This document shows, one piece after another, positions 26,172 to 38,530 of a stretch of DNA of 64,000 nt. The notes under the pieces were generated by a model. That model was not told the DNA's origin. It searched no databases and worked only from the letters and a program-made list of their open reading frames with translations. The stretch covers positions 736,001 through 800,000 of the forward strand of contig OY762926.1 of NCBI GenBank assembly GCA_963666735.1. The letters run 5' to 3'. The stretch is from Gemmatimonadota bacterium. GTDB lineage: Bacteria; Gemmatimonadota; Gemmatimonadetes; Palauibacterales; Palauibacteraceae. Position 1 is the first letter of the stretch. Each line of letters starts with the position of its first letter. Both the position numbers and the translations under genes were made by a program.

Positions 26172-27085
26172 GCCCCGGCTGGCTCCTCTGCGAGCCCAAC
26201 GTGAGCGAGGGGCGCGACCCACGCAGGATGGCCCGCTTCGCGGCCGCCGTCGATGAAATTCGCGGCGTCGAACTCCTCCACAGATCGGCCGACCCGGACC
26301 ACCATCGCATGGTGCTCGCCTACCGGGGGGCTCCCGAAGCCGTGGTCCGCGCGACGTCGGCGCTCGCGGGGGCCGTGTACGCCGAAGTCGATCTGCGGCG
26401 GCACCGGGGCGAGCACCCGCGGATCGGCGCACTGGATGTCGTCCCCTTCGTGCGCGGCCCGCGGTGTCCAGAGGCCGAGGCGCTCCGGGCGTCCCGCTCC
26501 TTCGGCGAGTGGGCGGCGGCGCGCTCGGTCCCGGTCTTCTTTTACGAACGGGCCGCGACAAACCCGGACCGGACTTCCCTTCCCGGCATCCGGTCCGGAC
26601 AGTTCGAGGGTCTGGCCGGGAAGTTGTCACACCCCGGATGGAGGCCGGATCTCGGTCCTCCGGCCCCCCATCCGTCGCTCGGCGCCGTCGTCGTCGGGGT
26701 GCGAGAGGCCCTCGTGCGCTTCAACGTGAACCTCGACACGACAGATCCGGGACCCGCTCGCCGCATCGCCGCGGCGATCCGGGAATCGGGCGGCGGGCTG
26801 CCGTACGTCCGCGCACTCGGAATCCCGCTGCGGCGGAGGGGATTGACGCAGGTGTCCATGAACCTGACCCGCTACGCCGTGACCGGGGTTCGCACGGCGT
26901 ACGAGCGCGTCGCCGAAGGCGCGCGGGCGGAGGGTGTGGCGCCGGCGGGTTGCGAGTTCATCGGTCCGGTGCCTGCGGAGGCGATCCGCGGCCTCGACCT
27001 CTCGCGACTGGACGCGGATGTCGCGCCGGACCAGATATTGGAGTTGCCGCGGACCCGAGACAGCGGAGAGGGAGGAAGGGGATGA
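26168..27085 (+). CDS. ftcD: Glutamate formiminotransferase (no cyclodeaminase domain)
   Basis: [31 protein letters not shown] and QVSMNL. The start is placed at CTG 26168 in a CTGA overlap with the hutH stop. Confidence 0.88.
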
Positions 27086-28740
27086 AACCGGCCGGACCGA
27101 TCCGGGCGCCGAGGGGAACGACGCTTTCGTGCAAGGGATGGCACCAGGAGGCGGCCCTCCGGATGCTGATGAACAACCTCGACCCGGACGTGGCGGAGCG
27201 CCCCGGAGACCTCGTCGTGTACGGGGGCGCGGGCAAGGCGGCGCGTGACTGGGCCGCGTACGCGAAGATCGTGGAGACGCTGCGCCGGCTGGAGAACGAC
27301 GAAACCCTGCTCGTCCAGAGCGGGAAGCCGGTCGGCGTGTTCCCCACCCACGACGAGGCGCCGCGCGTGCTCATCGCGAACGCCCACCTCGTCCCCCGCT
27401 GGGGGGATATCGACGAGTTCCGGCGTCTCGATGCCCTGGGACTCACGATGTACGGGCAGATGACCGCGGGTTCGTGGATCTACATCGGCACGCAGGGGAT
27501 CCTCCAGGGGACCTACGAGACGTTCGCGGAAATCGCGCGGCAGCACTTCGGGGGTTCTCTCGCGGGACGGCTCGTGGTGACCGCCGGGTTGGGGGGGATG
27601 GGGGGCGCCCAGCCGCTCGCCGCGACGATGAACGGGGGGGCCTTCCTCGGGGTCGAGGTCCGGGAGGACCGCATTCGCCGGCGCCTCGACACGGGCTACT
27701 GCGACCGCATGACGACGGACCTCGACGAGGCGCTGGAGTTGCTCTCCGCCGCCATGGACCGGGGGGAGGCGCTCTCGGTGGCCCTGCTCGGGAACATCGC
27801 CGAAGTCCTGCCCGCGCTCGCGGAGCGCGGCGTCGTGCCCGACGTGCTCACGGATCAGACCTCGGCGCACGACCTCCGTCTCGGCTACATCCCGGCGGGC
27901 CTGTCCGTGGAGGAGGCCGAGGCGCTGAGCCTCTCCGACCCGGACGCATACGTCGAGCGGGTCCTCGATTCCATGGTGACGCACGTGTCGGCCATGCTCG
28001 CGCTCAGGGCGCGAGGAGCGATCGCGTTCGACTACGGGAACAACCTTCGCGGCCAGGTGGCCGACCTGCGCGGCATGGCGGAGGCCTTCGACATTCCCGG
28101 CTTCGTGCCGGCCTTCATTCGACCCCTTTTCTGCCGGGGCGCGGGCCCCTTCCGCTGGGCCGCCCTCTCCGGCGATCCCGAGGACATCGCGGCGACGGAC
28201 GCGGCGGTCCTCGAGACGTTCCCGGAGAAGGAGGCGCTGGGCCGCTGGATCCGCCAGGCGCGCGAGCGGGTGCGCTTCCAGGGTCTCCCCTCCCGCATCT
28301 GCTGGCTCGAGTACGGCGAACGGGCGGAGATGGGAGAGCGCTTCAACTGGCTCGTGCAGACGGGACGGGCGCGGGCGCCCATCGTGATCGGGCGCGATCA
28401 CCTCGACACCGGCTCCGTGGCTTCGCCCAATCGGGAGACGGAAGGGATGCGGGACGGTTCCGACGCGATCGCCGACTGGCCGCTGCTGAACGCGATGCTC
28501 AACACCGCCTGCGGGGCGAGCTGGGTCTCGATTCACAACGGGGGCGGCGTGGGCATCGGGTATTCCACCCATGCGGGCATGGTGTGCGTCGCCGACGGGA
28601 CGGCATCCGGCAGCCGGCGGCTGGAGCGCGTGCTCACGGCGGATCCGGGCACCGGAGTCATGCGACACGCCGACGCGGGGTATCCGGAAGCGATCCGCAC
28701 CGCCCGCGAGCGCGGCGTCGACCTTCCCATGCTCGAATAG
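27082..28740 (+). CDS. hutU: Urocanate hydratase
   Basis: [47 protein letters not shown] and RHADAGY. ATG at 27082 with GGAGG upstream. Confidence 0.97.
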
Positions 28741-28756
28741 CGGCCGGCTCGCCGCC

Positions 28757-29989
28757 ATGCCGCGCCTCACGAACATCGGCTGTCTCGCCACCTGCGCGAA
28801 CCCTGCCGGCCAGGACGACATCGGGCTCATCCGGGATGCCGAACTCGTGTGGCGGGATGGAATCGTCCTGTGGGCCGGGCCGGCAGCCACGCTGCCGGCG
28901 GAATACCGGCAGGAACCCGAGTGGGACGCCGGAGGGCGCCTCGTCATCCCGGGGCTCGTGGATGCACATACACACCTCGCCTTCGGCGGTTGGCGAGCGG
29001 GCGAGTTCGCGGACCGCATCCAGGGTCGGGACTACCTCGAGATCGCCGCCGCCGGAGGCGGAATCAAATCGACGGTGCGGGCGACCCGGGCACTCGACGA
29101 AAATGCGCTCCTCGACCGCTCACGGGAGTTCCTGTCCGGGATGGTCTCGCTCGGGATCACGACGGTCGAGGCGAAGAGCGGGTACGGGCTGGACCTCGAG
29201 ACGGAGCTCCGACTCCTGCGGGTTTACCGGCGACTCGCCGAGATGGGACCTGCGCGGATCATCGCGACGTGCCTCGCCGCGCACGTCGTCCCGCCGGAAT
29301 GGGCCGGGGACCGGGCGGGCTACGTCCGACTCATCACCGAGGAGATCCTGCCGGCAGTGGCCGAGGAGGGGCTGGCGGATTTCTGCGATGTGTTCGTCGA
29401 GGATTCGGCCTTCTCCGCCGCCGAGGCGCGGCGGATCTGTGAACGGGGATCCGAACTGGGGTTACGCCCGAAGCTCCATGTGGATCAGCTCACAGACGGC
29501 GGCGGGGCCAAACTCGCCGCGTCGCTCGGGGCCGCGTCGGCGGACCACCTGGAGTACGCGTCGGAAGCCGGGATCGAAGCGCTCGCGGCGGCCGGCGTCG
29601 TCGGGGTCACCCTTCCTCTCGCCAACCTCTACCTGAACCAGGCTCCGCCTCCTGCCCGGGCTCTCATCGACGGGGGCGTCGCGGTGGCGGTGGCCAGCGA
29701 TTTCAACCCCGGCACGGCCCCGTGCTATCACCTTCCCTTCGCGATGACGCTCGCGTGCACCCGACAGCGGATGGCGCCCGCCGAAGTGCTCAAGGGCGCG
29801 ACGCGCTACGCGGCCCGGGCCCTCGGCCGCGAAGGTGAAGCGGGATCGCTGGAGCCGGGAGCCGCGGCCGACTTCGCGGTCATCGATGCCCCGGACGTGG
29901 AACACTGGATCTACCACCTCCGGCCCAACGCGTGTGTTGCCACAGTGATGGGCGGTGAGATCCGACACGGCGGTCTCCGGGGAGCGTAG
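28757..29989 (+). CDS. hutI: Imidazolonepropionase
   Basis: PGLVDAHTHL, EAKSGYGL, HVDQL, SADHLE and SDFNPG. ATG at 28757. Confidence 0.95.
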   Translation: MPRLTNIGCLATCANPAGQDDIGLIRDAELVWRDGIVLWAGPAATLPAEYRQEPEWDAGGRLVIPGLVDAHTHLAFGGWRAGEFADRIQGRDYLEIAAAGGGIKSTVRATRALDENALLDRSREFLSGMVSLGITTVEAKSGYGLDLETELRLLRVYRRLAEMGPARIIATCLAAHVVPPEWAGDRAGYVRLITEEILPAVAEEGLADFCDVFVEDSAFSAAEARRICERGSELGLRPKLHVDQLTDGGGAKLAASLGAASADHLEYASEAGIEALAAAGVVGVTLPLANLYLNQAPPPARALIDGGVAVAVASDFNPGTAPCYHLPFAMTLACTRQRMAPAEVLKGATRYAARALGREGEAGSLEPGAAADFAVIDAPDVEHWIYHLRPNACVATVMGGEIRHGGLRGA

Positions 29990-30010
29990 ACGGCTTCGCG
30001 GCGCCCGAAG

Positions 30011-31333
30011 TCAGGCGCCGGGATCCACAACGGCATCGAGCGGGGCGGCGCCGCCATCCAACCCGATGACCGCACGGTTCCAACCGCCGTCCTGCCGGCG
30101 GACGAGGCGCAGCATCTCCGTCGCGGCGTCGAGCAGGTCCGCGGCAATCAGCTTGCCGGCGTAGCTCTCCCGGATCGTGCGCACGGGCGTGTGTCCGACG
30201 ACGTGAATGGCGGCATCGAAACGCTCCAGGACGGCGTCGAGGTGGCCCCCGAGCGTGTCGGCGAGCACGAGATCCCGATACCAGAGCACGCTCTCCGGTC
30301 CGAAGAAGAAGTCGTACCGGCGGTAGATCTGGGCCGAATCGAGCCGGGTTTCGCGCGCGAATTCCTCGAGGAACGCCGCGTCCCGCCATCTCGTGAACAG
30401 CGGCTCCGCGATGAAGGTCTCCAGGGTGTCCTGGTACTCCTCGAGCGAGACGTCGACGTATGCCGGACTCACGCCCCCGTGCGCGAGCAGCAGGTCCCCC
30501 AGTCGAACCAGCCCCGGCTTGGCGGCGATCCAGCGTCCGAGAACGGAACGGCCCGGGTCGAACAGCGCCTCGTAGGACATGCCGTGCCAGTCGCCGATCG
30601 TCTGTTCCTTCGGCGCCACGTAGCGCAGGTCGCCGGACAGGACCATCGCTTCATGGTTGCCGAGGAGCGTGATGACCCGGCCGCCGGCCGCGTGCGCCTC
30701 CCGTTCCAGGCCGTAAATGAACCAGAGGAGGCGGGTCACGTCTTCCCCCCGGTCGAACAGGTCTCCGAGAAAGGCGACGACGGCGCGGCCGCCCGTCCAG
30801 CGCCGTTCCGCGTCGATCAGGCCGGCCACCCCGAGCAGCGAGACGACGCGGTCGAACTCGCCGTGCACATCCCCGAACACGAACACGGAGTCGTGCCCGC
30901 CGAGGTCGACTTCCGGCGAAGGAGGCTCCACCCGGATCCGGGTTCGGTGCAGGGCCGTGGCCCCCCCGGCATCGTCCGGCTGTTCCGCCCCGTATTCGAG
31001 CGTGATTTCGGGCGCCCGGACCCGCAGGCGAACCGCGTGTGCGTACCCGCGGTCCGTCCTTTGCTCATCGACCACTCGTCCATCCACGATCGCCCGGACC
31101 CGCCCGGACCGCACTTCCTCCGTGATCCAGCGCACGTCGAGACCGCGTCCGGTGAACGCGACGTAGAGTCCGTATTCCCCCGCCAGGCGCAAACCGGCCT
31201 GTCCCGTTGGCGGGAGGGACCCGGCCCGTCGCGGCCCGTCGCCGGAAGCGGGCGCGGAGGCGCCGGTCCACCCCACCCCTGCGACGGCGACGGCACAGTA
31301 CAGGAGACCGGACACCCGGCGGGGGAGCTTCAG
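30011..31333 (-). CDS. Secreted metallophosphoesterase, Shewanella-like (Shelph) PPP-type phosphatase
   Basis: GDVHG, GDLFDRG, GNHE, AHGG, a WYR motif and VVGHT. The N-terminus MKLPRRVSGLLYCAVAVAGVGWTGASA is signal-peptide-like (CTG 31333; alternative GTG 31315). The track ORF is over-extended to 32620. Confidence 0.85.
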   Translation of the reverse strand: MKLPRRVSGLLYCAVAVAGVGWTGASAPASGDGPRRAGSLPPTGQAGLRLAGEYGLYVAFTGRGLDVRWITEEVRSGRVRAIVDGRVVDEQRTDRGYAHAVRLRVRAPEITLEYGAEQPDDAGGATALHRTRIRVEPPSPEVDLGGHDSVFVFGDVHGEFDRVVSLLGVAGLIDAERRWTGGRAVVAFLGDLFDRGEDVTRLLWFIYGLEREAHAAGGRVITLLGNHEAMVLSGDLRYVAPKEQTIGDWHGMSYEALFDPGRSVLGRWIAAKPGLVRLGDLLLAHGGVSPAYVDVSLEEYQDTLETFIAEPLFTRWRDAAFLEEFARETRLDSAQIYRRYDFFFGPESVLWYRDLVLADTLGGHLDAVLERFDAAIHVVGHTPVRTIRESYAGKLIAADLLDAATEMLRLVRRQDGGWNRAVIGLDGGAAPLDAVVDPGA

Positions 31334-32328
31334 GGGAGCAACTCGTAGCGGCCTTCGTCCACCCACTCGATGAGGCGGACGATGCGCCGGTGCATGGACC
31401 GGATCTCCGATTCCGTGAGCCCGAGCTGAATCCGGTCCCCGTCGCGCCGAACCCCGCGGCCGGGATCGAGGTTCCCGGCCGGCTCCACCTCCACGAAGTT
31501 CCCGTCCCGCAGCTCGAACTGGACGAGGACCCCGAGTTGCGCCTGCAACCCCTCGAGCGAGACGTCGCGCAACCGGTCGATGGCGAAGGCCGGGTAGCGG
31601 TCGAGGCGCAGGTTGCGCCACCGCGTGCCGCGGTCGCTCTCCTCGCTCGCGAACGCCACGCCGTTGTCGACGCTGAACACGCGGGGCCACGCGGAATCCA
31701 TCGACTGCACGAAGTTCCCCCGGTTCGAATCGCCGTGACGGATGATGTACGTGAGGAGGTTGAAGTTCCCGAGCAGACGCTCGTAGACCTCGTCCTCCTC
31801 GAGCCGGTCGTCGTCGGGCAGATCGTCGGGAAGATCGACGTTGAACATCCAGTACTGGAGCGCGACGAGGGTCATCGGCCACTCGTCGAACGTCCGTTCC
31901 GGAGGGTTGGCGGCATCCCCCGTCCGGGCGACCGTGGCCCGGACGGCGTCGATGGGGAAGGCGCGGATCGCGGTCGGAGGCACGACCCGTTCCCGCTCGT
32001 CGAGGAAGAGCAGCTGGACGTCGTGGGCCGCCAGTTCGTAGCGGGGCCGGTTGTTGAACTCGTCCGCCCCCTCGCCGGCCGGAGCGTACTTGACCTGGAG
32101 CACATGGTCGCCGGATTGCAGCGTCACGCGGTAGGTGCGCTCGCCGGGAAGGCCGCGGGACGGCTGTGCGTCGAGGACCTGGATTTCCCCTTCGCGGAGG
32201 ATCCTGTCGATCTCGGCGATGGGGAGGAGGAAGTTCGCGTCCTGGGCCGTCGCCGTTGCCGGCGCCGCCGCGGCGGCCGCCCCCGCGGCGAAGAGCACTG
32301 CGCGGAACAGATCGGCGCATCGCATCAT
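31330..32328 (-). CDS. Secreted protein with atypical (PI3/4K-HipA-Fam20-like) kinase motifs
   Basis: Ala-rich Sec signal ending ATA-QD. VKY (beta3 Lys), RYELAA (alphaC Glu), VVPPT, GDSNRGN (D-x4-N catalytic loop) and VDNGVAF (DFG equivalent). ATG at 32328 overlaps the HK stop. Confidence 0.65.
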   Translation of the reverse strand: MMRCADLFRAVLFAAGAAAAAAPATATAQDANFLLPIAEIDRILREGEIQVLDAQPSRGLPGERTYRVTLQSGDHVLQVKYAPAGEGADEFNNRPRYELAAHDVQLLFLDERERVVPPTAIRAFPIDAVRATVARTGDAANPPERTFDEWPMTLVALQYWMFNVDLPDDLPDDDRLEEDEVYERLLGNFNLLTYIIRHGDSNRGNFVQSMDSAWPRVFSVDNGVAFASEESDRGTRWRNLRLDRYPAFAIDRLRDVSLEGLQAQLGVLVQFELRDGNFVEVEPAGNLDPGRGVRRDGDRIQLGLTESEIRSMHRRIVRLIEWVDEGRYELLP

Positions 32329-33119
32329 TCCGCAGCCTCCTTCCGTGCGGGACCCGTGGGCTGCCGAAGCGGCAGGCGTACGTCGAACGCCGTCCCCCGG
32401 CCCGGTTCGCTCTCGACCGAGATGTCCCCTCCGTGCTGGTGTACGATCTGGAGTGTGATCGCGAGACCCAGCCCCATCCCGATCCGCTCGCCCTTGGTCG
32501 TGAATCCGGGTTCGAAGATCTCCCCGATGACGCCGCTCGGGATGCCCCGGCCCGTGTCGGCGATGCGGATGCGCGCGCGGTCCCCTTCCACGCGCGTCCC
32601 GATCGTGAGTACGCCTCCATCCATGGCCTGGGCCGCGTTGTGCACGAGGTTCATGAACACCTGGTTGATCCGGTTCGGATGGCACACCACCAGCGGCAGG
32701 TCGCCGAAGTCGCGGACGACCTCGACCTCCTTCAGCTCGTGCCCCAAAAGGGCCAGCGAACCCTCGATGCCTTCGTGAAGGTCTACGGGACGAGGCTCGG
32801 AGGTCGTGGGCCGCCCGAAGTTCTTCAGGTTCCGTACGAGGTTCACCATGCGTTCCACGGCGATGCCGTTGGTTCGCAGCACCGATTCGGTCGCGCGCAC
32901 GACGCGACGGACCTCATCGAGTTCGTCCGGCGTGACGACTTCATCCTCGAGGATTTCCCCGAGCTTGAGGAGCGCGCGCTCGATGACGTGGTGGTTGCTG
33001 TTCAGGGCTCCCAACGGGGTGTTGAGTTCGTGCGCGATCCCCGCGACCAGCGTGCCCAGCGTCGCGAGGCGAGCCTGCGTGATCTCCCGGGCCGTCGGCC
33101 CCAGTCCCGGCTCGATCAC
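32325..33119 (-). CDS. Cytoplasmic histidine kinase lacking a sensor domain (HisKA + HATPase)
   Basis: H-box AGIAHELNTP, N-box NQVFMNLVHNA, DTGRGI, FEPGFTTK and GMGLGL. GTG at 33119 overlaps the REC gene stop. Confidence 0.9.
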   Translation of the reverse strand: MIEPGLGPTAREITQARLATLGTLVAGIAHELNTPLGALNSNHHVIERALLKLGEILEDEVVTPDELDEVRRVVRATESVLRTNGIAVERMVNLVRNLKNFGRPTTSEPRPVDLHEGIEGSLALLGHELKEVEVVRDFGDLPLVVCHPNRINQVFMNLVHNAAQAMDGGVLTIGTRVEGDRARIRIADTGRGIPSGVIGEIFEPGFTTKGERIGMGLGLAITLQIVHQHGGDISVESEPGRGTAFDVRLPLRQPTGPARKEAAE

Positions 33120-33601
33120 AGGAAGGCCTGGATCCACCGCTGCCGGAGTCCGGCGAGTTCGTCGTGCGCCGCCTCGAGTTCGGCCATGCGTTCGGTCAGG
33201 GCGCTGAAGAGAAGGCTTCGCTCGACCCCGTTGCGGATGGCGAAGGCGAGCGCGTCGTTGTTCCACGGCTTCTCAAGGTACTGGTAGAGGCCGGCCTCGT
33301 TGATGGCCAGGATGGCGTTCTCCTTGTCGGCGTAGCCTGTGAGCAGGATCCGGGTCGCCTCCGGCCGCATCTTGCGGGCTCTCGTAAGGAACTGCACGCC
33401 GTCGAGGTCCGGCATCATGAGGTCGGCCACGATCGCGTGGACGGGTTCCTTCTCGAGGTGGGCGAGGGCGGCGCGCGCGGATGTGAAGGGGCGCACCAAG
33501 TGGTCCGTTTCCAGCTCCAGGAACCCCTGAATGGCATCGACGACCATGTCCTCGTCGTCGACGACCATCACGGTGCCGGCGTCAGGTCTGATCTCATCCA
33601 T
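33116..33601 (-). CDS. Response regulator receiver protein with C-terminal coiled coil, no output domain
   Basis: VVDDE, DLMMP, LLTGY and YLEKPW, followed by about 35 aa of helix. Confidence 0.92.
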   Translation of the reverse strand: MDEIRPDAGTVMVVDDEDMVVDAIQGFLELETDHLVRPFTSARAALAHLEKEPVHAIVADLMMPDLDGVQFLTRARKMRPEATRILLTGYADKENAILAINEAGLYQYLEKPWNNDALAFAIRNGVERSLLFSALTERMAELEAAHDELAGLRQRWIQAFL

Positions 33602-33607
33602 GTCGGA

Positions 33608-36600
33608 TCATGTCATCGCCAGGCCGCGAACGCGACTCGCGAGTCCGCGAAGCAGGTCGAGGCCGAGTTCGGGGTGGTCGATGAGAAGGTCGCGAAAGTC
33701 CTCGCTGGTGATGCGCAGCACGCGGGTGGGTTCGACGGCGTGCGCTTCGACGAGACTGGGATGTTCGTCGATCAGGGCCCACGTCCCGAACGCCTCTCCA
33801 TCCGTGAGGGAAATCGATTCCTCTCCCGCCCCCTCGAGTGAGACTTCGCCGTGGATCACGAGGTAGAGCGCGTCCGTCGGCTCCCCCCTGCGGATGAAGA
33901 CGGCGTCCGGCCGCACCTCGACCTCCCTCGCGATGGAGGCGAGGAGCGCGAGTTGCCGACTTTTCACGCCCGAGAGGAGATCCACGCTCTGCAGGCGAAA
34001 CACCTTTTCGATCAGTTCCATCTCTTCCTCGTCTCGCTCGTCCCCCGGATCCTGTGCGGGGGTCTCGGCCCGCCGCCCAAGGCGGTGGGCCACACGCGCC
34101 AGCGCCGGTTCCGCCGGCCCAAAACCGCGGAGGGCCTCTGCCATCGCGTCGCGGTCGATTTCGAAGGAGGTCCGGAGCGCACACCTCGCGATCCAGGCAT
34201 CCTCATCGTCCCACAGCTCCCGCAGGACCTCTCCCGCCTCGCGCGCAGGCTCCCGCGGGGCCTCCTCCGCCAGCACCGGTCTGAGGTCGGAGAACGTGCG
34301 GTGTCCGACCGTGGTCTCGATCCACTCCAGGGCGTTCGCCCGCCGGCGCGGCCGTCCACTCTCGATGGCCAGGTAGCTGCGCCTCATCGGCTGCTCGGGA
34401 TATACGAGCCCCAGCCACCGAAAGACACTCGCCCGCCGATCCCGCCTCGCCTCATCGAGCGCTCGGAGGAGCAGCGTCCGGGGCATCGACGCCGGCACAC
34501 CCTCGAGTGCGGTGGCGGCGCGTGCGTAGCGCAGGGACGCGCGAACCTCGCGCTCCACGGCCTCCAGCACCCGCTCCGCCGGAAAAGTGAGGTGCTCATG
34601 CTGTGTGCGCAGCCGGTGGAGCGATACGAGGGCCTGGTCGTCGAGCGCCTGTTCGGTTTCCGGCAGCAGGTAGGAGGTGACGAGGGCATCGATCGTCGCA
34701 GGGGTCGCGATCTCGCCGAGTACGCTCGCGACGCCCCGGCGTACCCAGGGGTCGGCGGCCGGGTCGGAAAGTGCCGCAAGCAGAGGCGTGACGATCTCCT
34801 CGCCCCGCCCCGCCAGGCCGTCGCGCGCCGCGCTCCGGGTCCGCGGGATCGCGAGAGATGCGATGGCCGCCCGCACGAGGGCCGGCTGGGGGAGCCGGGC
34901 TGCGCTCCGCGCGGCCGCCGCCGCGACATCATCGCGGGGGTGGGCGACGAGTTCCGGAAGAACCCCCTCCACCGCGGGGTGCCCGGGGACGAGGCCCGCC
35001 GCCATCGCCAACTCCCGGGCGCCGGATCCTTCGAGTGCGCCCCTCTCATGTTCCCGCAGCAGGTGTTCGAAGCGGGGGGTCGCGATGCGTTCGGCCCGGC
35101 TGGCGCCAAAGTCGCTGAACAGGCAGTCGAACGCGGCCGAGCGGGCGTTCGTCGACTTCGAGTCGAGGAGGGGGATGAGAACATCGCGCGCCCGCGGCGC
35201 CGCCTTCAGGGCGAGGAGCCGGGCGGCGGCGCGCCGCACGGCCGAATCCGGATCCTCGAGCCGGGCCCGCACCGCCTCCTCGTTTGAGAGGCCGGGGGCC
35301 CGGGAAAGCGATCGCAGCGCCCGCGCCCGGAGGCCGGGGTTCTCATGCTCAAGGAGGCCGTACAGTTCCGGCGAAAGCGCCTCGATGTCCTCCGGCGTGG
35401 CACCGCGCAGCAAGTCGAAGGCGAACGCGACCCTCAGCGGCCGCTCATCCCGCAGCGCGTCGCGCGCGAGCGCGAGCGCGCCCACGTCCGCCATCGACAC
35501 GAAGGTCCCGCGCAGGCTCGCGAAGCGTCCCTCGAAGGACTGAGCCAGGCTCGTGACGTACGACTTTCGCACTTTGAGGAAGGCGAGCAGCAGGACGCCC
35601 GCCAGACCGACGCCGACGACCCCGAGGATCATGAGCCGGCCCGTGATCGAAAGGCCGGCGAGAGCGAGCGAAGGGATTGCGATGAGCACCCCGGAGAGCG
35701 CCTTCCCCAACCCTTTCTCCACCGCCACGTCGATGTACGACTTCGCCTTGAGCTTGATGTCGTCCGGGACGGGGACGTAGAGGATCTCGCGGCCCGTGCG
35801 CTCGGCGGAATAACGGAACGTCTTCTCCGTCGTCCGGGCCCCGACGGCGACGGCGAGCGCGGCGGCGGACAGCCACACGGCGGCGGCGAGAGCCCCGGTC
35901 GCGAGGATCACGGCCACGGGGAAGATGATGACGGCGACCCCGGCGCCCCAGCGGCGCAGGACCGGACGCAGCGCGAGGAGGACGACGATCGGGAGCCATT
36001 GCGTGAGGACATCGACGAAGGCCAGAAAGCCCGCGATCGCGCCCAGGTCGGTGAAGACCTCGCGCGTGAGCGTGTTGTACTGGTAGTCGATGAACTGTTT
36101 GACGACGATCGTCAGGAGCACCGTGGCCGCGATGAGCCGCACCTGAGGGTGCGCCGCCATGCGCCGCAGGTCGCTGCGCTCAAGTTCGGGATCTTCCGCG
36201 TACGCGTGCTCCGGCGGCGGCGCCGGCGGCTCCCGCGACCAAATGAGAGCGAGGCCGCCCGCCAGCACGAGGAGCGCGGCGCCCGCCACGAGAAGCAGGT
36301 TCTCCGACGGTCCTCCGCCCGAGGCGAAGACGGTCGTGAGGAGCGCCCCGAGCGTGGCCCCGACCGAACTCGAGGCGATGACGACCGGATAGGCGCGCTT
36401 CGCATCGCGAGCGTTGTAGAAGACCTGCGTCGCCATGTAGAAGTGCGTGACGAGCGAGGCCGCCAACACGTCGTACCACCCGTAGAAGACGAACCCGAAC
36501 CACGCCGCTCCCGGTTGGTAGATGAGGCGGAAGGCGACCATGCTCAGGGCGAAGAACGCCGCCGTAAGCGGGATGAGGCGGCGCCACGAGATGCGGTCCG

Positions 36601-36811
36601 AGAGGTAGTTGTAGAACGGAGCGACGACCACCACGGCCGCGCTGATGAAGTACACCTGGTAGAAATCGCCCGCGGCGAGTCCCGAGAGAGCGAAGGCGCT
36701 GCGCAGCGGACGCAGGATCCCGATGACGAAGAGGACGAGCGCCGCCAACCCCATCATGGCGAGCAGCTTCCCCGCCCCGGCTCTCCGCGCGAAGACCCCG
36801 CCGAGCCTCAC
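33608..36811 (-). CDS. NTT/TLC (Npt1/Npt2-like) nucleotide transporter fused to HEAT repeats and a cyclic-nucleotide-binding domain
   Basis: About 12 TM helices with TLC-like motifs (ARDAKRAYP, KQFIDYQY, REILYVPVPDDIKLKAKSYIDV), then HEAT-like repeats, then a cNMP domain (RRGEPTDALYLVIHGEV...GEAFG). GTG 36811 has an AGGAG SD; ATG 36856 is the alternative start. Confidence 0.82.
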   Translation of the reverse strand: MRLGGVFARRAGAGKLLAMMGLAALVLFVIGILRPLRSAFALSGLAAGDFYQVYFISAAVVVVAPFYNYLSDRISWRRLIPLTAAFFALSMVAFRLIYQPGAAWFGFVFYGWYDVLAASLVTHFYMATQVFYNARDAKRAYPVVIASSSVGATLGALLTTVFASGGGPSENLLLVAGAALLVLAGGLALIWSREPPAPPPEHAYAEDPELERSDLRRMAAHPQVRLIAATVLLTIVVKQFIDYQYNTLTREVFTDLGAIAGFLAFVDVLTQWLPIVVLLALRPVLRRWGAGVAVIIFPVAVILATGALAAAVWLSAAALAVAVGARTTEKTFRYSAERTGREILYVPVPDDIKLKAKSYIDVAVEKGLGKALSGVLIAIPSLALAGLSITGRLMILGVVGVGLAGVLLLAFLKVRKSYVTSLAQSFEGRFASLRGTFVSMADVGALALARDALRDERPLRVAFAFDLLRGATPEDIEALSPELYGLLEHENPGLRARALRSLSRAPGLSNEEAVRARLEDPDSAVRRAAARLLALKAAPRARDVLIPLLDSKSTNARSAAFDCLFSDFGASRAERIATPRFEHLLREHERGALEGSGARELAMAAGLVPGHPAVEGVLPELVAHPRDDVAAAAARSAARLPQPALVRAAIASLAIPRTRSAARDGLAGRGEEIVTPLLAALSDPAADPWVRRGVASVLGEIATPATIDALVTSYLLPETEQALDDQALVSLHRLRTQHEHLTFPAERVLEAVEREVRASLRYARAATALEGVPASMPRTLLLRALDEARRDRRASVFRWLGLVYPEQPMRRSYLAIESGRPRRRANALEWIETTVGHRTFSDLRPVLAEEAPREPAREAGEVLRELWDDEDAWIARCALRTSFEIDRDAMAEALRGFGPAEPALARVAHRLGRRAETPAQDPGDERDEEEMELIEKVFRLQSVDLLSGVKSRQLALLASIAREVEVRPDAVFIRRGEPTDALYLVIHGEVSLEGAGEESISLTDGEAFGTWALIDEHPSLVEAHAVEPTRVLRITSEDFRDLLIDHPELGLDLLRGLASRVRGLAMT

Positions 36812-36868
36812 GTCTTCTCCTTCGCCGGGGTGGCTTCGACCTCCCGGGCGGCCCATCTTTCGGGACTT

Positions 36869-36942
36869 CGGGGCGTGGCGCAGTCCGGTAGCGCACCTGC
36901 TTTGGGAGCAGGGGGTCGCCGGTTCAAATCCGGCCGCCCCGA
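36869..36942 (+). tRNA. tRNA-Pro(TGG)
   Basis: CGGGGCGTGGCGCAGTCCGGTAGCGCACCTGCTT-TGG-GAGCAGGGGGTCGCCGGTTCAAATCCGGCCGCCCCGA; no encoded CCA. Confidence 0.96.
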
Positions 36943-37571
36943 TTCCGCAGGACTTCCCTTTCGATCCATCCCCTGGCCCGCCGGACCGCCTTCGCTCGAT
37001 GGCTGGTCGCCGTCTTCACCGCGGCGGGCAGCTCCGCGTACGTGCGGTCGTGGCCCTCCGGCACGAAGAGCGGGTCGTAGCCGAAGCCTCCCGAGCCGCC
37101 CGGCCGGCACGCGATTCGGCCGCGCACGATGCCCTCGACCACTTCATGGCACAGATCGTCGGTGAGCGCGACCGCGCAGCGATAGTGGGCCCCGCGGCGT
37201 TCCTCCCCGACGCTCTCCAGCTGTTCGAGCAGCCAGCGATTGTTCGCTTCGTCCCGCCCCCGGCGCGCGACCAGCTCCGGCGGAGCGAAGCGCCGGGTTC
37301 GCACGCCCGGGCCGCCCCCGAGGGCGTCCACGCAGAGGCCGGAATCATCCGCGAGCACGGGCAGGCCGGACCGGCGGTGAAAGTACTTCGCCTTCGACAG
37401 GGCGTTGCGCGCGAAGGTATCGAAGGGTTCGAGATCTCCCTCTTCCTCGCGCTCGGGAAGACCGAGGTCCTCCGGGCCCAGCAGCCGGACCGGAAGGTCG
37501 GCGAGGAGGCCGCGGATTTCGCGGAGTTTGTGGGCGCTGCGCGTGGCGACGAGCACCGGAGGCGGGTTCAA
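36924..37571 (-). CDS. rdgB: Non-canonical purine NTP pyrophosphatase (RdgB/HAM1)
   Basis: VATRSAHKLRE, LADDSGLCVDAL.G.PGV, GFGYDPLF and SHR. TTG start at 37571 overlaps the upstream stop. Confidence 0.92.
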   Translation of the reverse strand: MNPPPVLVATRSAHKLREIRGLLADLPVRLLGPEDLGLPEREEEGDLEPFDTFARNALSKAKYFHRRSGLPVLADDSGLCVDALGGGPGVRTRRFAPPELVARRGRDEANNRWLLEQLESVGEERRGAHYRCAVALTDDLCHEVVEGIVRGRIACRPGGSGGFGYDPLFVPEGHDRTYAELPAAVKTATSHRAKAVRRARGWIEREVLRNRGGRI

Positions 37572-38530
37572 TCCGCCCAAAGACTCTCCGCCGCGAGACT
37601 TTCCGCGAACTCCGGGTAGACCTTCCACAGGTATCCGCCCATGACAAGCGCCGCGAGGATGTTGCCGACGAGAATCGACCACCAGGCGAGTTCATCGAGA
37701 ATCCAGCCGCCCAGCATCGCGACCATGGCGACGAAGAAGACCTCGAAGACGACGAACAGCACGATGATGCCGAGGGCGAGCGGGGGGAACCGGGACACCT
37801 GTCTCGCGAGGCCGGAGACCGCGACGCCGAACAACACGAAGAACGCGAAGTGGGCGAGCGTGTAGCCGAGGATCGGCGCGAAGGAGATCTCGACCGCGGC
37901 CGGCGTGGGAGCGCCGCGGAAGAGCACCGTCGCCAGCGCCGCCGGCGTATAGAGGGGCTGCCGGAGCATGGTGTCGATGATGAGGAACCAGAGTGCGACG
38001 ACGAGGGCGCCGAGGAGCCCCGCGTAGATGCCGTGCCGCGTCACCCGGTGCGTCTGGAGGAAGTTCATCATCCCCACGATGCCGGGTTCGGAGCTCACCC
38101 AGTGCATGTGGGTGAACATCACGACCCCGGCGAGCGCGTTCCCGAAGAAGACGGCGGGCCACCCCGGCGCGGACATCACGAGTCCGGAAGGCGCCCGGAT
38201 GAGGCCGATGTAGAACGCGAGCGAGCACACGAAGAGCCCGTACAGCGCGCCGATGAACACGTTTCGGGGGAGGCCCGCCCACTGGACGAGCGCCGCGGCC
38301 AGCATCCCGAGCCCGGCCCAGGCGGTGAAGTGGATGAAGGTGAAGCCCACGATGATCCCGGTCGTGGCCTCGACCTCCGCGCGGCTGATGATCGCCCCCC
38401 AGAGGAAGGCCGGCGTCTGAAGCGGGGTCCCCTGCCCGAGGTCGTAGAAGTAGAAGAGCACGGCGAGAACGACCCCCCCCAGCAGCCCTCCGGCGAGCCC
38501 GGCCCGGATCCTGCGCCTCAGCGTCAGCAT
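37568..38530 (-). CDS. Uncharacterised polytopic membrane protein with internal duplication (2 x ~4 TM)
   Basis: The halves align: GLLGGVVLAVLFYFYD...PLQTPAFL with GLLGALVVALWFLIID...PLYTPAAL; FTFIHF with YTLAHF; GNALAG with GNILAA. Confidence 0.8.
   Translation of the reverse strand: MLTLRRRIRAGLAGGLLGGVVLAVLFYFYDLGQGTPLQTPAFLWGAIISRAEVEATTGIIVGFTFIHFTAWAGLGMLAAALVQWAGLPRNVFIGALYGLFVCSLAFYIGLIRAPSGLVMSAPGWPAVFFGNALAGVVMFTHMHWVSSEPGIVGMMNFLQTHRVTRHGIYAGLLGALVVALWFLIIDTMLRQPLYTPAALATVLFRGAPTPAAVEISFAPILGYTLAHFAFFVLFGVAVSGLARQVSRFPPLALGIIVLFVVFEVFFVAMVAMLGGWILDELAWWSILVGNILAALVMGGYLWKVYPEFAESLAAESLWAD

Follow-up and report, generated by a model that had tools for sequence, protein, structure and literature searches.

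Nucleotide carriers of the NTT-HEAT-cNBD type have been catalogued in free-living bacteria, two Gemmatimonadetes sequences among them, and their function is stated to be unknown in the available sections of the paper (Major, Embley & Williams 2017, PMC5381601). The only described neighbour of these fusions in the same sections is a cNBD gene. Kinases of the Fam20 family are known from animal secretory compartments, where they act outside the cytosol behind a signal sequence and need ATP to be carried into the compartment, according to the accessible parts of two sources (PMC5865150, PMC7948968). CotH is the sole Fam20-like kinase mentioned in the accessible part of a review of bacterial phosphorelays (PMC12189002). 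In the current analysis we have studied a locus at positions 30011-36811 of a 64,000-nucleotide stretch, referred to here as the window, from a Gemmatimonadota bacterium (assembly GCA_963666735.1, contig OY762926.1, positions 736,001 to 800,000). It comprises five open reading frames (ORFs), all in the same direction on the minus strand, encoding an NTT/TLC-type transporter (gene A), a REC regulator (B), a histidine kinase (C), a kinase-fold protein (D) and a Shelph phosphatase (E). This organisation suggests a module for phosphorylation outside the cytoplasm that has a nucleotide supply of its own. The components belong to known superfamilies, and it is their combination into one system, as read from the genomes, that is without a described counterpart. 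Neither a carrier-linked periplasmic kinase/phosphatase system nor a bacterial member of the kinase family of D was found described in the literature outside subscription journals, in line with the first-pass annotation, made from the letters alone, which did not recognise a described operon here. The features of the locus are given below.

33608..36811, minus strand: gene A, NTT/TLC-type 12-helix transporter with HEAT and cNMP-binding-like domains, 1067 amino acids, GTG start
35519..36811, minus strand: gene A residues 1-431, NTT-like major facilitator superfamily (MFS) membrane domain, model helices H13-42 to H389-431
34052..35479, minus strand: gene A residues 445-920, HEAT/alpha-solenoid region (Pfam HEAT_2/HEAT), all-helical repeats in the model
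33614..34015, minus strand: gene A residues 933-1066, cNMP-binding-like beta-barrel (Pfam cNMP_binding)
33755-33790, minus strand: gene A phosphate-binding cassette F1008-S1019, non-canonical
33116..33601, minus strand: gene B, single-domain response regulator, REC with a C-terminal helix of about 40 residues, 161 amino acids
32325..33119, minus strand: gene C, HisKA and HATPase_c, soluble, without sensor domain, 264 amino acids
31330..32328, minus strand: gene D, predicted exported Fam20/PI4KII-like atypical kinase, 332 amino acids
32245-32328, minus strand: gene D residues ~1-28, signal-peptide-like N-terminus
31714-31737, minus strand: gene D catalytic loop H198-N205, HxDxxxxN
31663-31668, minus strand: gene D D221-N222, DN motif
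30011..31315, minus strand: gene E, predicted exported Shelph phosphatase with an N-terminal domain of about 100 residues, revised start GTG 31315, 434 amino acids

Genes A, D and E are genetically linked across phyla and are occasionally fused. Of 301 genomes sampled from the phylum, 22 encode D, which is present in 15 of 16 other genomes of the genus of the window and scattered elsewhere. Thirteen loci from 11 of the D-bearing genomes were compared, and the order A-B-C-D-E is kept in seven of them. A still adjoins D, in other arrangements, in three more: D lies upstream of A-B-C-E in one, A-B-C-D is without E in another, and in the third a shorter A immediately precedes D. Of the last three loci, one has E and D on opposite strands and two are lone second copies of D. 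Orthologues of A with at least 40% identity occur solely in genomes that also hold D, in a tally that includes genomes G182 and G057, and weaker paralogues are common. A scan of the GTDB species genomes gave 218 loci, the best 80 of which were considered further. They are not independent, as about 17 come from one genus, and 59 of the 80 are labelled Gemmatimonadota. The neighbours of D in these loci, counted by tblastn and a local TLC hidden Markov model, are given below, where full flanks denote at least 5.5 kb upstream and 4.5 kb downstream.

All loci (n=80): E within 3 kb of D in 58, TLC ORF in 48, all five genes in 33
Full-flank loci (n=45): E within 3 kb of D in 37, TLC ORF in 36, all five genes in 29

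Rearranged forms of the locus include the order D-E-A-B-C (L098) and A placed directly before D (L072, L085 and L110). Five contigs labelled Proteobacteria (L076, L086, L103, L115 and L116) encode D, an overlapping longer metallophosphatase, of about 600 amino acids in the three ORFs scanned (L076, L103 and L116), and a convergent TLC-only carrier; no HEAT, cNMP, REC or histidine kinase domain was detected in the module of these five contigs. The five-gene arrangement far exceeds what chance would give, since it is met again in further genera, families and phyla, and the joint occurrence of transporter, kinase and phosphatase that the first-pass annotation had anticipated in other genomes is thereby observed.

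The TLC-only carrier next to D in L116 (12694-14334, minus strand) bears at its C-terminus a He_PIG Ig-like domain (Pfam, 1.3e-6), of a type usually located outside the cytoplasm.

Fusions provide a second line of evidence for the association. Four protein clusters (P0131, P0145, P0275 and P0276) are D-E fusions with one signal peptide each. Two others (P0154 and P0277), which come from different sources and are 64% identical in the D part, are TLC-D fusions. In both of the latter a hydrophobic segment after Arg-rich sequence lies between the carrier and D, and an ADSN mature-type motif follows it. Based on the sequence, this additional segment would be a thirteenth helix that places D outside, opposite to the location of the C-terminus of the carrier.

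In a further group of fusions (P0229 and P0278) the D-type domain is preceded by a signal peptide and then by a Beta-lactamase2 (class-A beta-lactamase-like) domain. Fusions of this type are named 'serine hydrolase' from Myxococcales in one source and are found on 41 contigs. They may hint at a peptidoglycan-related substrate.

The location of D and E was assessed from their N-termini, using a hydrophobicity and lipobox heuristic on 94 representatives of the D family and inspection by eye in the case of E. The N-terminus of D in the window reads MMRCADLFRAVLFAAGAAAAAAPATATA/QD. An N-terminal hydrophobic stretch was identified in 85 of the 94 representatives and a lipobox-like Cys in 38 of the 94; the nine representatives without the hydrophobic N-terminus may be truncated gene calls. 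The homologues of E have a hydrophobic segment ahead of a conserved GEYGL motif in all the ten loci inspected. The evidence that D is exported by a Sec signal peptide, and is a lipoprotein in many relatives, and that E is exported is good, though informal, and for E a signal-anchored protein is also conceivable. The export proposed for both proteins in the first-pass annotation is in this way extended to the two families, by heuristic for D and by inspection for E. It would be very improbable, in view of these results, that D and E are cytoplasmic or unrelated neighbours and that their signal peptides are artefacts of start-codon choice. The start of E is uncertain, as described below, which leaves some room for such an explanation; it is countered by the hydrophobic N-termini, often with a lipobox in D, by the D-E fusions with a single signal peptide, by the fusion of D to a beta-lactamase-like domain of periplasmic type and by a linkage that is kept across phyla.

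Many distant members of the D family have a pair of Cys residues (…LC.D……FC…) just past the signal peptide or lipobox, which is absent from D of the window. Such a pair would fit a disulfide formed in an oxidising compartment.

No Pfam or NCBIfam family has been matched by D. A word-indexed search yielded 1077 members of its family among 8000 scored candidates, and an exhaustive search 455 representatives at 50% identity, of which 112 lie below 1e-30. An alignment of 94 full-length representatives has K80, E98, H198, D200, N205, D221 and N222 at least 90% conserved. The AlphaFold2 (AF2) model derived from this 94-member alignment has a predicted local distance difference test score (pLDDT) of 93.7 and a predicted template modelling score (pTM) of 0.89. 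In the model K80 lies in the strand 75-83, E98 in the helix 95-105, the motif H198-x-D200-x4-N205 follows the helix 180-195 and D221-N222 follows the strand 217-219. The set of residues characteristic of active kinases, namely the beta3 Lys, the alphaC Glu, HxDxxxxN and the metal-binding Asp, is thus complete and is situated in the expected secondary-structure elements. The model was compared with 48,161 chains by VIA-align, with the following matches.

Hydra Fam20 (5xom): Z 17.0, 255 residues aligned at 3.6 A
Fam20C, two entries (4kqa and 5yh0): Z 16.0
PI4KII-alpha: Z 14.9
Actin-fragmin kinase: Z 12.0
CtkA: Z 11.5
CotH: Z 10.9
PI3K-like kinases and HipA: Z about 9-10

Foldseek gives the same ranking (Fam20C with an E-value of 7.5e-7 and PI4KII-alpha with 7.9e-7). 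The modelled fold of D is therefore closest to the Fam20 kinases and then to PI4KII-alpha. The kinase fold and the combination of a signal-like N-terminal segment with atypical kinase motifs, both suspected for 31330-32328 from the sequence alone, are in agreement with these comparisons. Of the four families named there for comparison (Fam20C, HipA, CotH and PI4K), two provide the best matches and CotH and HipA rank lower.

The likeness to Fam20C and Fam20B (4kqa, 5yh0 and 5xom; Z 16-17) extends over sequences only 11-15% identical. Those enzymes are animal secretory kinases, whereas D is bacterial and would be found in a periplasmic or lipoprotein context, with an NTT-type MFS protein of the same operon as its putative ATP carrier. 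At the level of sequence profiles the resemblance is to the second-best fold, PI4KII (4pla and 4hnd). PI3_PI4_kinase (PF00454) is matched below threshold in 35 of the 94 members, with a best E-value of 1.6e-5, and D of the window has no PI3_PI4_kinase match. The matches are weak, lie over the HxDxxxxN / DxG region and all remain below the Pfam gathering score of 27.1 bits, and nothing points to phosphoinositides in this organism. The Fam20C profile PF06702 was matched by none of the 94 members at an E-value of 0.05 or lower. A profile search of PDB with the D alignment gave marginal PI3K/ATM matches, the best being Vps34 (0.018) on the catalytic loop, and no Fam20 match. In the protein Atlas a bacterial cluster with the Fam20C domain (PF06702) appears only at rank 14 with a score of 0.94. 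CotH and H. pylori CtkA (5jda and 3akj; Z 10.9 and 11.5) are bacterial atypical kinases in the structural neighbourhood of D, but they are less similar to it than Fam20 and PI4KII, and linkage to a nucleotide carrier or a phosphatase is seen for neither of them.

Two tandem copies of D-type kinases without an adjoining Shelph gene are encoded in some Gemmatimonadota (L095:9944-11966 and L068). The second copy in L095 matches PI3_PI4_kinase with an E-value of 7.1e-6 and is followed by a gene for a gamma-glutamyltranspeptidase.

D could also be a kinase-like receptor for external ATP or another nucleotide, with E shaping the signal, A and the two-component pair relaying or adjusting it and no envelope substrate being phosphorylated. 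The occurrence of a pseudokinase, Fam20A, in the Fam20 family (as given in PDB titles), the presence of B, C and a cNMP-like domain in the operon and the lack of a sensor in the histidine kinase itself would suit a role in signalling. The catalytic Asp and Asn and the metal-binding Asp are at least 90% conserved among the 94 members, as is typical of active kinases, and the proteobacterial module drops B, C, HEAT and cNMP yet keeps the carrier, D and the phosphatase. Such a receptor function is therefore considered very unlikely.

E is assigned to Metallophos (Pfam, 4.3e-11). Residues 137-400 match the Shewanella phosphatase structures 2z72, 2zbm and 1v73 with an E-value of about 1e-35 in phmmer, the next match being BSU1 at 3e-4, and the motifs GDVHG, GDLFDRG and GNHE are followed by later His motifs. 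By sequence E is a Shelph (Shewanella-like PPP) metallophosphatase, the identity originally given to it. It aligns with the cold-active protein-tyrosine phosphatase of Shewanella (1v73 and 2z72) across the whole catalytic domain, including GDxHG, GDxxDRG and GNHE, but differs by a conserved N-terminal domain of about 100 residues (GEYGLYV...) and by its linkage or fusion to a kinase.

The transporter encoded by gene A, which is the single TLC gene of the genome, has Pfam matches in the order TLC, HEAT repeats and cNMP-binding domain. The same order is observed in the model, and it corresponds to the NTT-HEAT-cNBD architecture and to the fusion named in the first-pass annotation. HEAT_2 (8.4e-16) and cNMP_binding (1.5e-13) are well matched. 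TLC (PF03219) scores 22.9 bits against a cut-off of 21 and covers profile positions 296-491 only, a match to MFS_1 is about as strong, and the NCBIfam model TIGR00769 scores far below its cut-off (23.1 against 387). When the N-terminal 440 residues were searched against PDB by phmmer, the sole match was AtNTT1 (9j3j) with an E-value of 1e-5 over residues 61-401. The alignment with AtNTT1 has a conserved NTT-like stretch, FRYSAERTGREILYVPVPDDIKLKAKSYIDV, around YSxxxxxxExxY-PxxxDxKxKxKxxIDV. In the full-length AF2 model (pLDDT 81.7), 12 long helices occupy the part up to residue 431 and are followed by HEAT-like repeats to about residue 920 and by a beta-barrel domain. The best Foldseek match of the model is AtNTT1 9j3m (E-value 7.2e-9, TM-target 0.75). 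The top set comprises the ADP/Pi-bound and ATP-bound AtNTT1 (9j3m/9j3l) and the NTT1 of C. pneumoniae (9j3n), with other MFS carriers close behind at TM-target 0.65-0.72. On the basis of sequence and model A is a 12-helix NTT/TLC-type carrier, and in both respects it is closest to the solved ATP/ADP translocators.

The solute of A may be a different one, such as NAD+, another nucleotide, a nucleotide sugar or an unrelated MFS substrate, so that its link to D and E is not one of ATP supply. NTT members are described to carry other nucleotides and NAD+ in the available part of the source (PMC5381601), the TLC match is weak with an MFS_1 match of similar strength, and paralogues of the NTT-HEAT type are found in unrelated contexts. 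The sole solved relative by sequence is, on the other hand, an ATP/ADP translocator, and a shared nucleotide is the simplest explanation for the fusion of a kinase-fold domain to the carrier. We regard the alternative solute as quite unlikely.

The HEAT and cNMP-like domains of A are predicted to face the cytoplasm, because the even number of helices places them on the side of the positively charged N-terminus. In canonical cNMP-binding cassettes a conserved Glu and a conserved Arg contact the cyclic nucleotide (ribose phosphate). The phosphate-binding cassette of A reads FGTWALID..PS, is invariant or nearly so in the 25 aligned orthologues, and has Thr in place of the canonical Glu and Ser in place of the canonical Arg, the cNMP fold and the profile match still being there. 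Because of these replacements the binding of cAMP or cGMP by the domain is doubtful, and its ligand would probably be a different one, or none. This also sets A apart from the described NTT-HEAT-cNBD fusions, as does the association of its subfamily with a REC/histidine kinase pair, an exported kinase and a Shelph. The gating of the flux by cNMP, which had been suggested earlier, is weakened by the absence of the canonical Glu and Arg in the 25 orthologues.

B has Response_reg (4.9e-21) as its sole domain, as first annotated, with D15/D16, D60, T88 and K111 conserved across 23 orthologues. C has HATPase_c (5.3e-25) and HisKA (2.5e-6) without a sensor or a transmembrane segment, and its H-box reads IAHELNTPL in the translation. 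Both appear intact by motif. The description of C as a sensorless histidine kinase holds in the lineage of the window and not elsewhere, as the orthologues in two other Gemmatimonadota loci (L069 and L095) have about 230 extra N-terminal residues without a Pfam match. Similarly, the pair is present in the operon of the window as annotated but would be accessory and not a core part, because the proteobacterial module is without it. B and C may be lineage-specific controllers, probably acting post-translationally on the cytoplasmic HEAT/cNMP-like module of A. Protein-protein control of A by B is the most economical guess, because B has no DNA-binding output.

In a distant family of the phylum (L122:2198-10924) the arrangement is split: a TLC-HEAT gene is accompanied by cNMP-binding, REC-only and PAS histidine kinase genes, each on its own, and a REC-PAS-HATPase hybrid precedes them. 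Neither D nor E is close by. Since this cluster occurs without D or E, the link of NTT-HEAT carriers to two-component proteins appears wider than their link to the kinase and phosphatase.

Taken together, it seems somewhat more probable than its negation that A swaps cytoplasmic ATP for periplasmic ADP (and Pi) and so fuels D, whose modification is reversed by E. A would act in the energised cell as an exchanger, with ATP moving out and ADP, probably with Pi, moving in, because the cytoplasmic ATP/ADP ratio is high; this is the reverse of its role in parasites. D would use the exported ATP at the periplasmic face for the phosphorylation of an envelope target, which might be a protein, like the targets of Fam20C, or else a glycan or lipid, like those of Fam20B and PI4KII, and E would remove the phosphate from the product. 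The cycle would close because the kinase and phosphatase together yield ADP and Pi, the counter-substrates of NTT carriers. LpxT similarly phosphorylates an envelope molecule, lipid A, at the periplasmic side, but according to the accessible part of its description it is an inner-membrane enzyme with a reaction tied to undecaprenyl phosphate synthesis (PMC2229476), whereas the kinase fold of D implies a nucleotide donor. The interpretation of the first-pass annotation is partly supported by these observations and is the best available reading, although its central steps are ones that we infer.

Transport in the opposite direction has also been considered. A could import external nucleotides, for example from a host, with D and E processing external phosphorylated compounds for uptake or as a source of phosphate. 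Periplasmic metallophosphoesterases that hydrolyse nucleotides are common. The relatives of the organism of the window are named as Candidatus Palauibacter metagenome-assembled genomes, and all the characterised NTTs are importers, in parasites or organelles, as described in the available part of the survey (PMC5381601). For D, however, a phosphate donor is needed outside the cell and a carrier that only imports supplies none, while a phosphatase that cleaves nucleotides would destroy the substrates of the carrier. Many other Gemmatimonadota, as well as Proteobacteria, encode the module, with rearranged gene order, and the TLC-D fusions would tether the kinase domain at the outer face of the carrier. 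Import is accordingly considered unlikely.

Several observations weigh against the proposal that A supplies ATP to D. ATP let into a periplasm that bears porins should leak out. The TLC score of A is marginal, with only the C-terminal half of the profile covered, and its fold score to NTT1 is only slightly above that of other MFS carriers. The best structural match of D is a glycan kinase, as Hydra Fam20 is a xylose kinase and not a protein kinase according to the accessible part of its description (PMC5865150). Because of this the fold leaves a protein, a glycan and a lipid substrate undecided, and reversible phosphorylation of proteins is not favoured over the other substrates. The linkage is also incomplete. 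In none of the 13 loci with D-E pairs from KSB1, Calditrichota, Cytophagia and unclassified contigs do the flanks contain a TLC gene; TLC proteins are encoded elsewhere in the genome in all five tested genomes with such pairs, against none of 14 control genomes. In 13 of the 80 loci, nine of them short or truncated and four with full flanks, D is without either partner. In eight other loci, L122 among them, distant NTT-HEAT-cNMP paralogues (25-30% identity) lie beside neither D nor a metallophosphatase, as judged from the nearest 39 of 56 ORFs, and the NTT-HEAT clade is widespread outside the D/E context in the available text of its survey (PMC5381601). Feeding D cannot be the only role of the clade, since the distant paralogues are without D and E.

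The occurrence of an exported ATP-user beside every NTT-HEAT carrier was also considered and is unsupported, given the eight distant paralogue loci.

A more general proposal is put forward tentatively, and we hold it to have appreciably less than an even chance of being correct: the periplasm of these bacteria would be an energised compartment, into which an NTT carrier exports ATP in return for ADP and Pi and in which a Fam20/PI4KII-like kinase and a Shelph phosphatase cycle the phosphorylation of the envelope, with the NTT-HEAT(-cNBD) carriers serving as regulated exporters. By extension such carriers of free-living bacteria would, if this is true, export ATP in a regulated manner and not import it, and the NTT-HEAT family, the role of which has been open since its cataloguing in 2017, would gain a function that can be tested. 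A carrier-kinase-phosphatase module of this kind would bear on the role of NTT proteins in free-living bacteria and on the view that the periplasm of Gram-negative bacteria, to our knowledge generally considered free of ATP-dependent chemistry, is without ATP. With it a large family of exported kinases would come to light, unnamed in the profile libraries and comprising 455 representatives at 50% identity and more than 1000 proteins. The fold of D points to the Fam20/PI4KII branch of kinases, which has so far been associated with eukaryotic secretory compartments, and the module, if real, would be a bacterial counterpart of the kinases of the eukaryotic secretory pathway with their luminal ATP supply.

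The junctions between the five co-oriented genes are largely as first annotated. A spacer of 6 nucleotides separates the stop of A from the start of B (TGA tccgac ATG), and 4-nucleotide overlaps join B to C (GTGA) and C to D (ATGA, with GGAAGGAGG upstream). A third overlap, CTGA between D and E, does not stand. The operon has two 4-nucleotide overlaps and not three because the codon at 31333 is CTG. The earliest canonical in-frame start of E is GTG 31315, which leaves a spacer of 14 nucleotides after D, and a close relative (L037) has ATG at the matching position; GTG 31315 is more likely than CTG 31333 to be the start. The GTG start of gene A at 36811 has the Shine-Dalgarno sequence AAGGAG 6 nucleotides upstream. 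The source genome is a single contig of 3.98 Mb and the window has about 70% G+C. Scans of 29800-37100 gave no promoter-like site and one terminator-like site, inside gene E and below the shuffle expectation, and are uninformative for a genome of 70% G+C. With PADLOC the five proteins gave no defence system and had domain-level matches to cNMP, HEAT and REC only.

A tRNA-Pro(TGG) gene (36868-36943, plus strand) is situated 56 nucleotides upstream of gene A in the opposite orientation, and the operon promoter has to be located within this tRNA gene or against it. An ORF of the Ham1/RdgB family (36924-37682, minus strand; Ham1p_like, 1.1e-51) overlaps the tRNA gene, on the opposite strand, by about 20 nucleotides at its 3' end. 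On the other side of the locus, a urocanase with three Pfam domains and then an ORF of the amidohydrolase family (26464-29989, plus strand) are convergent on the end of E and look like a histidine-utilisation pair.

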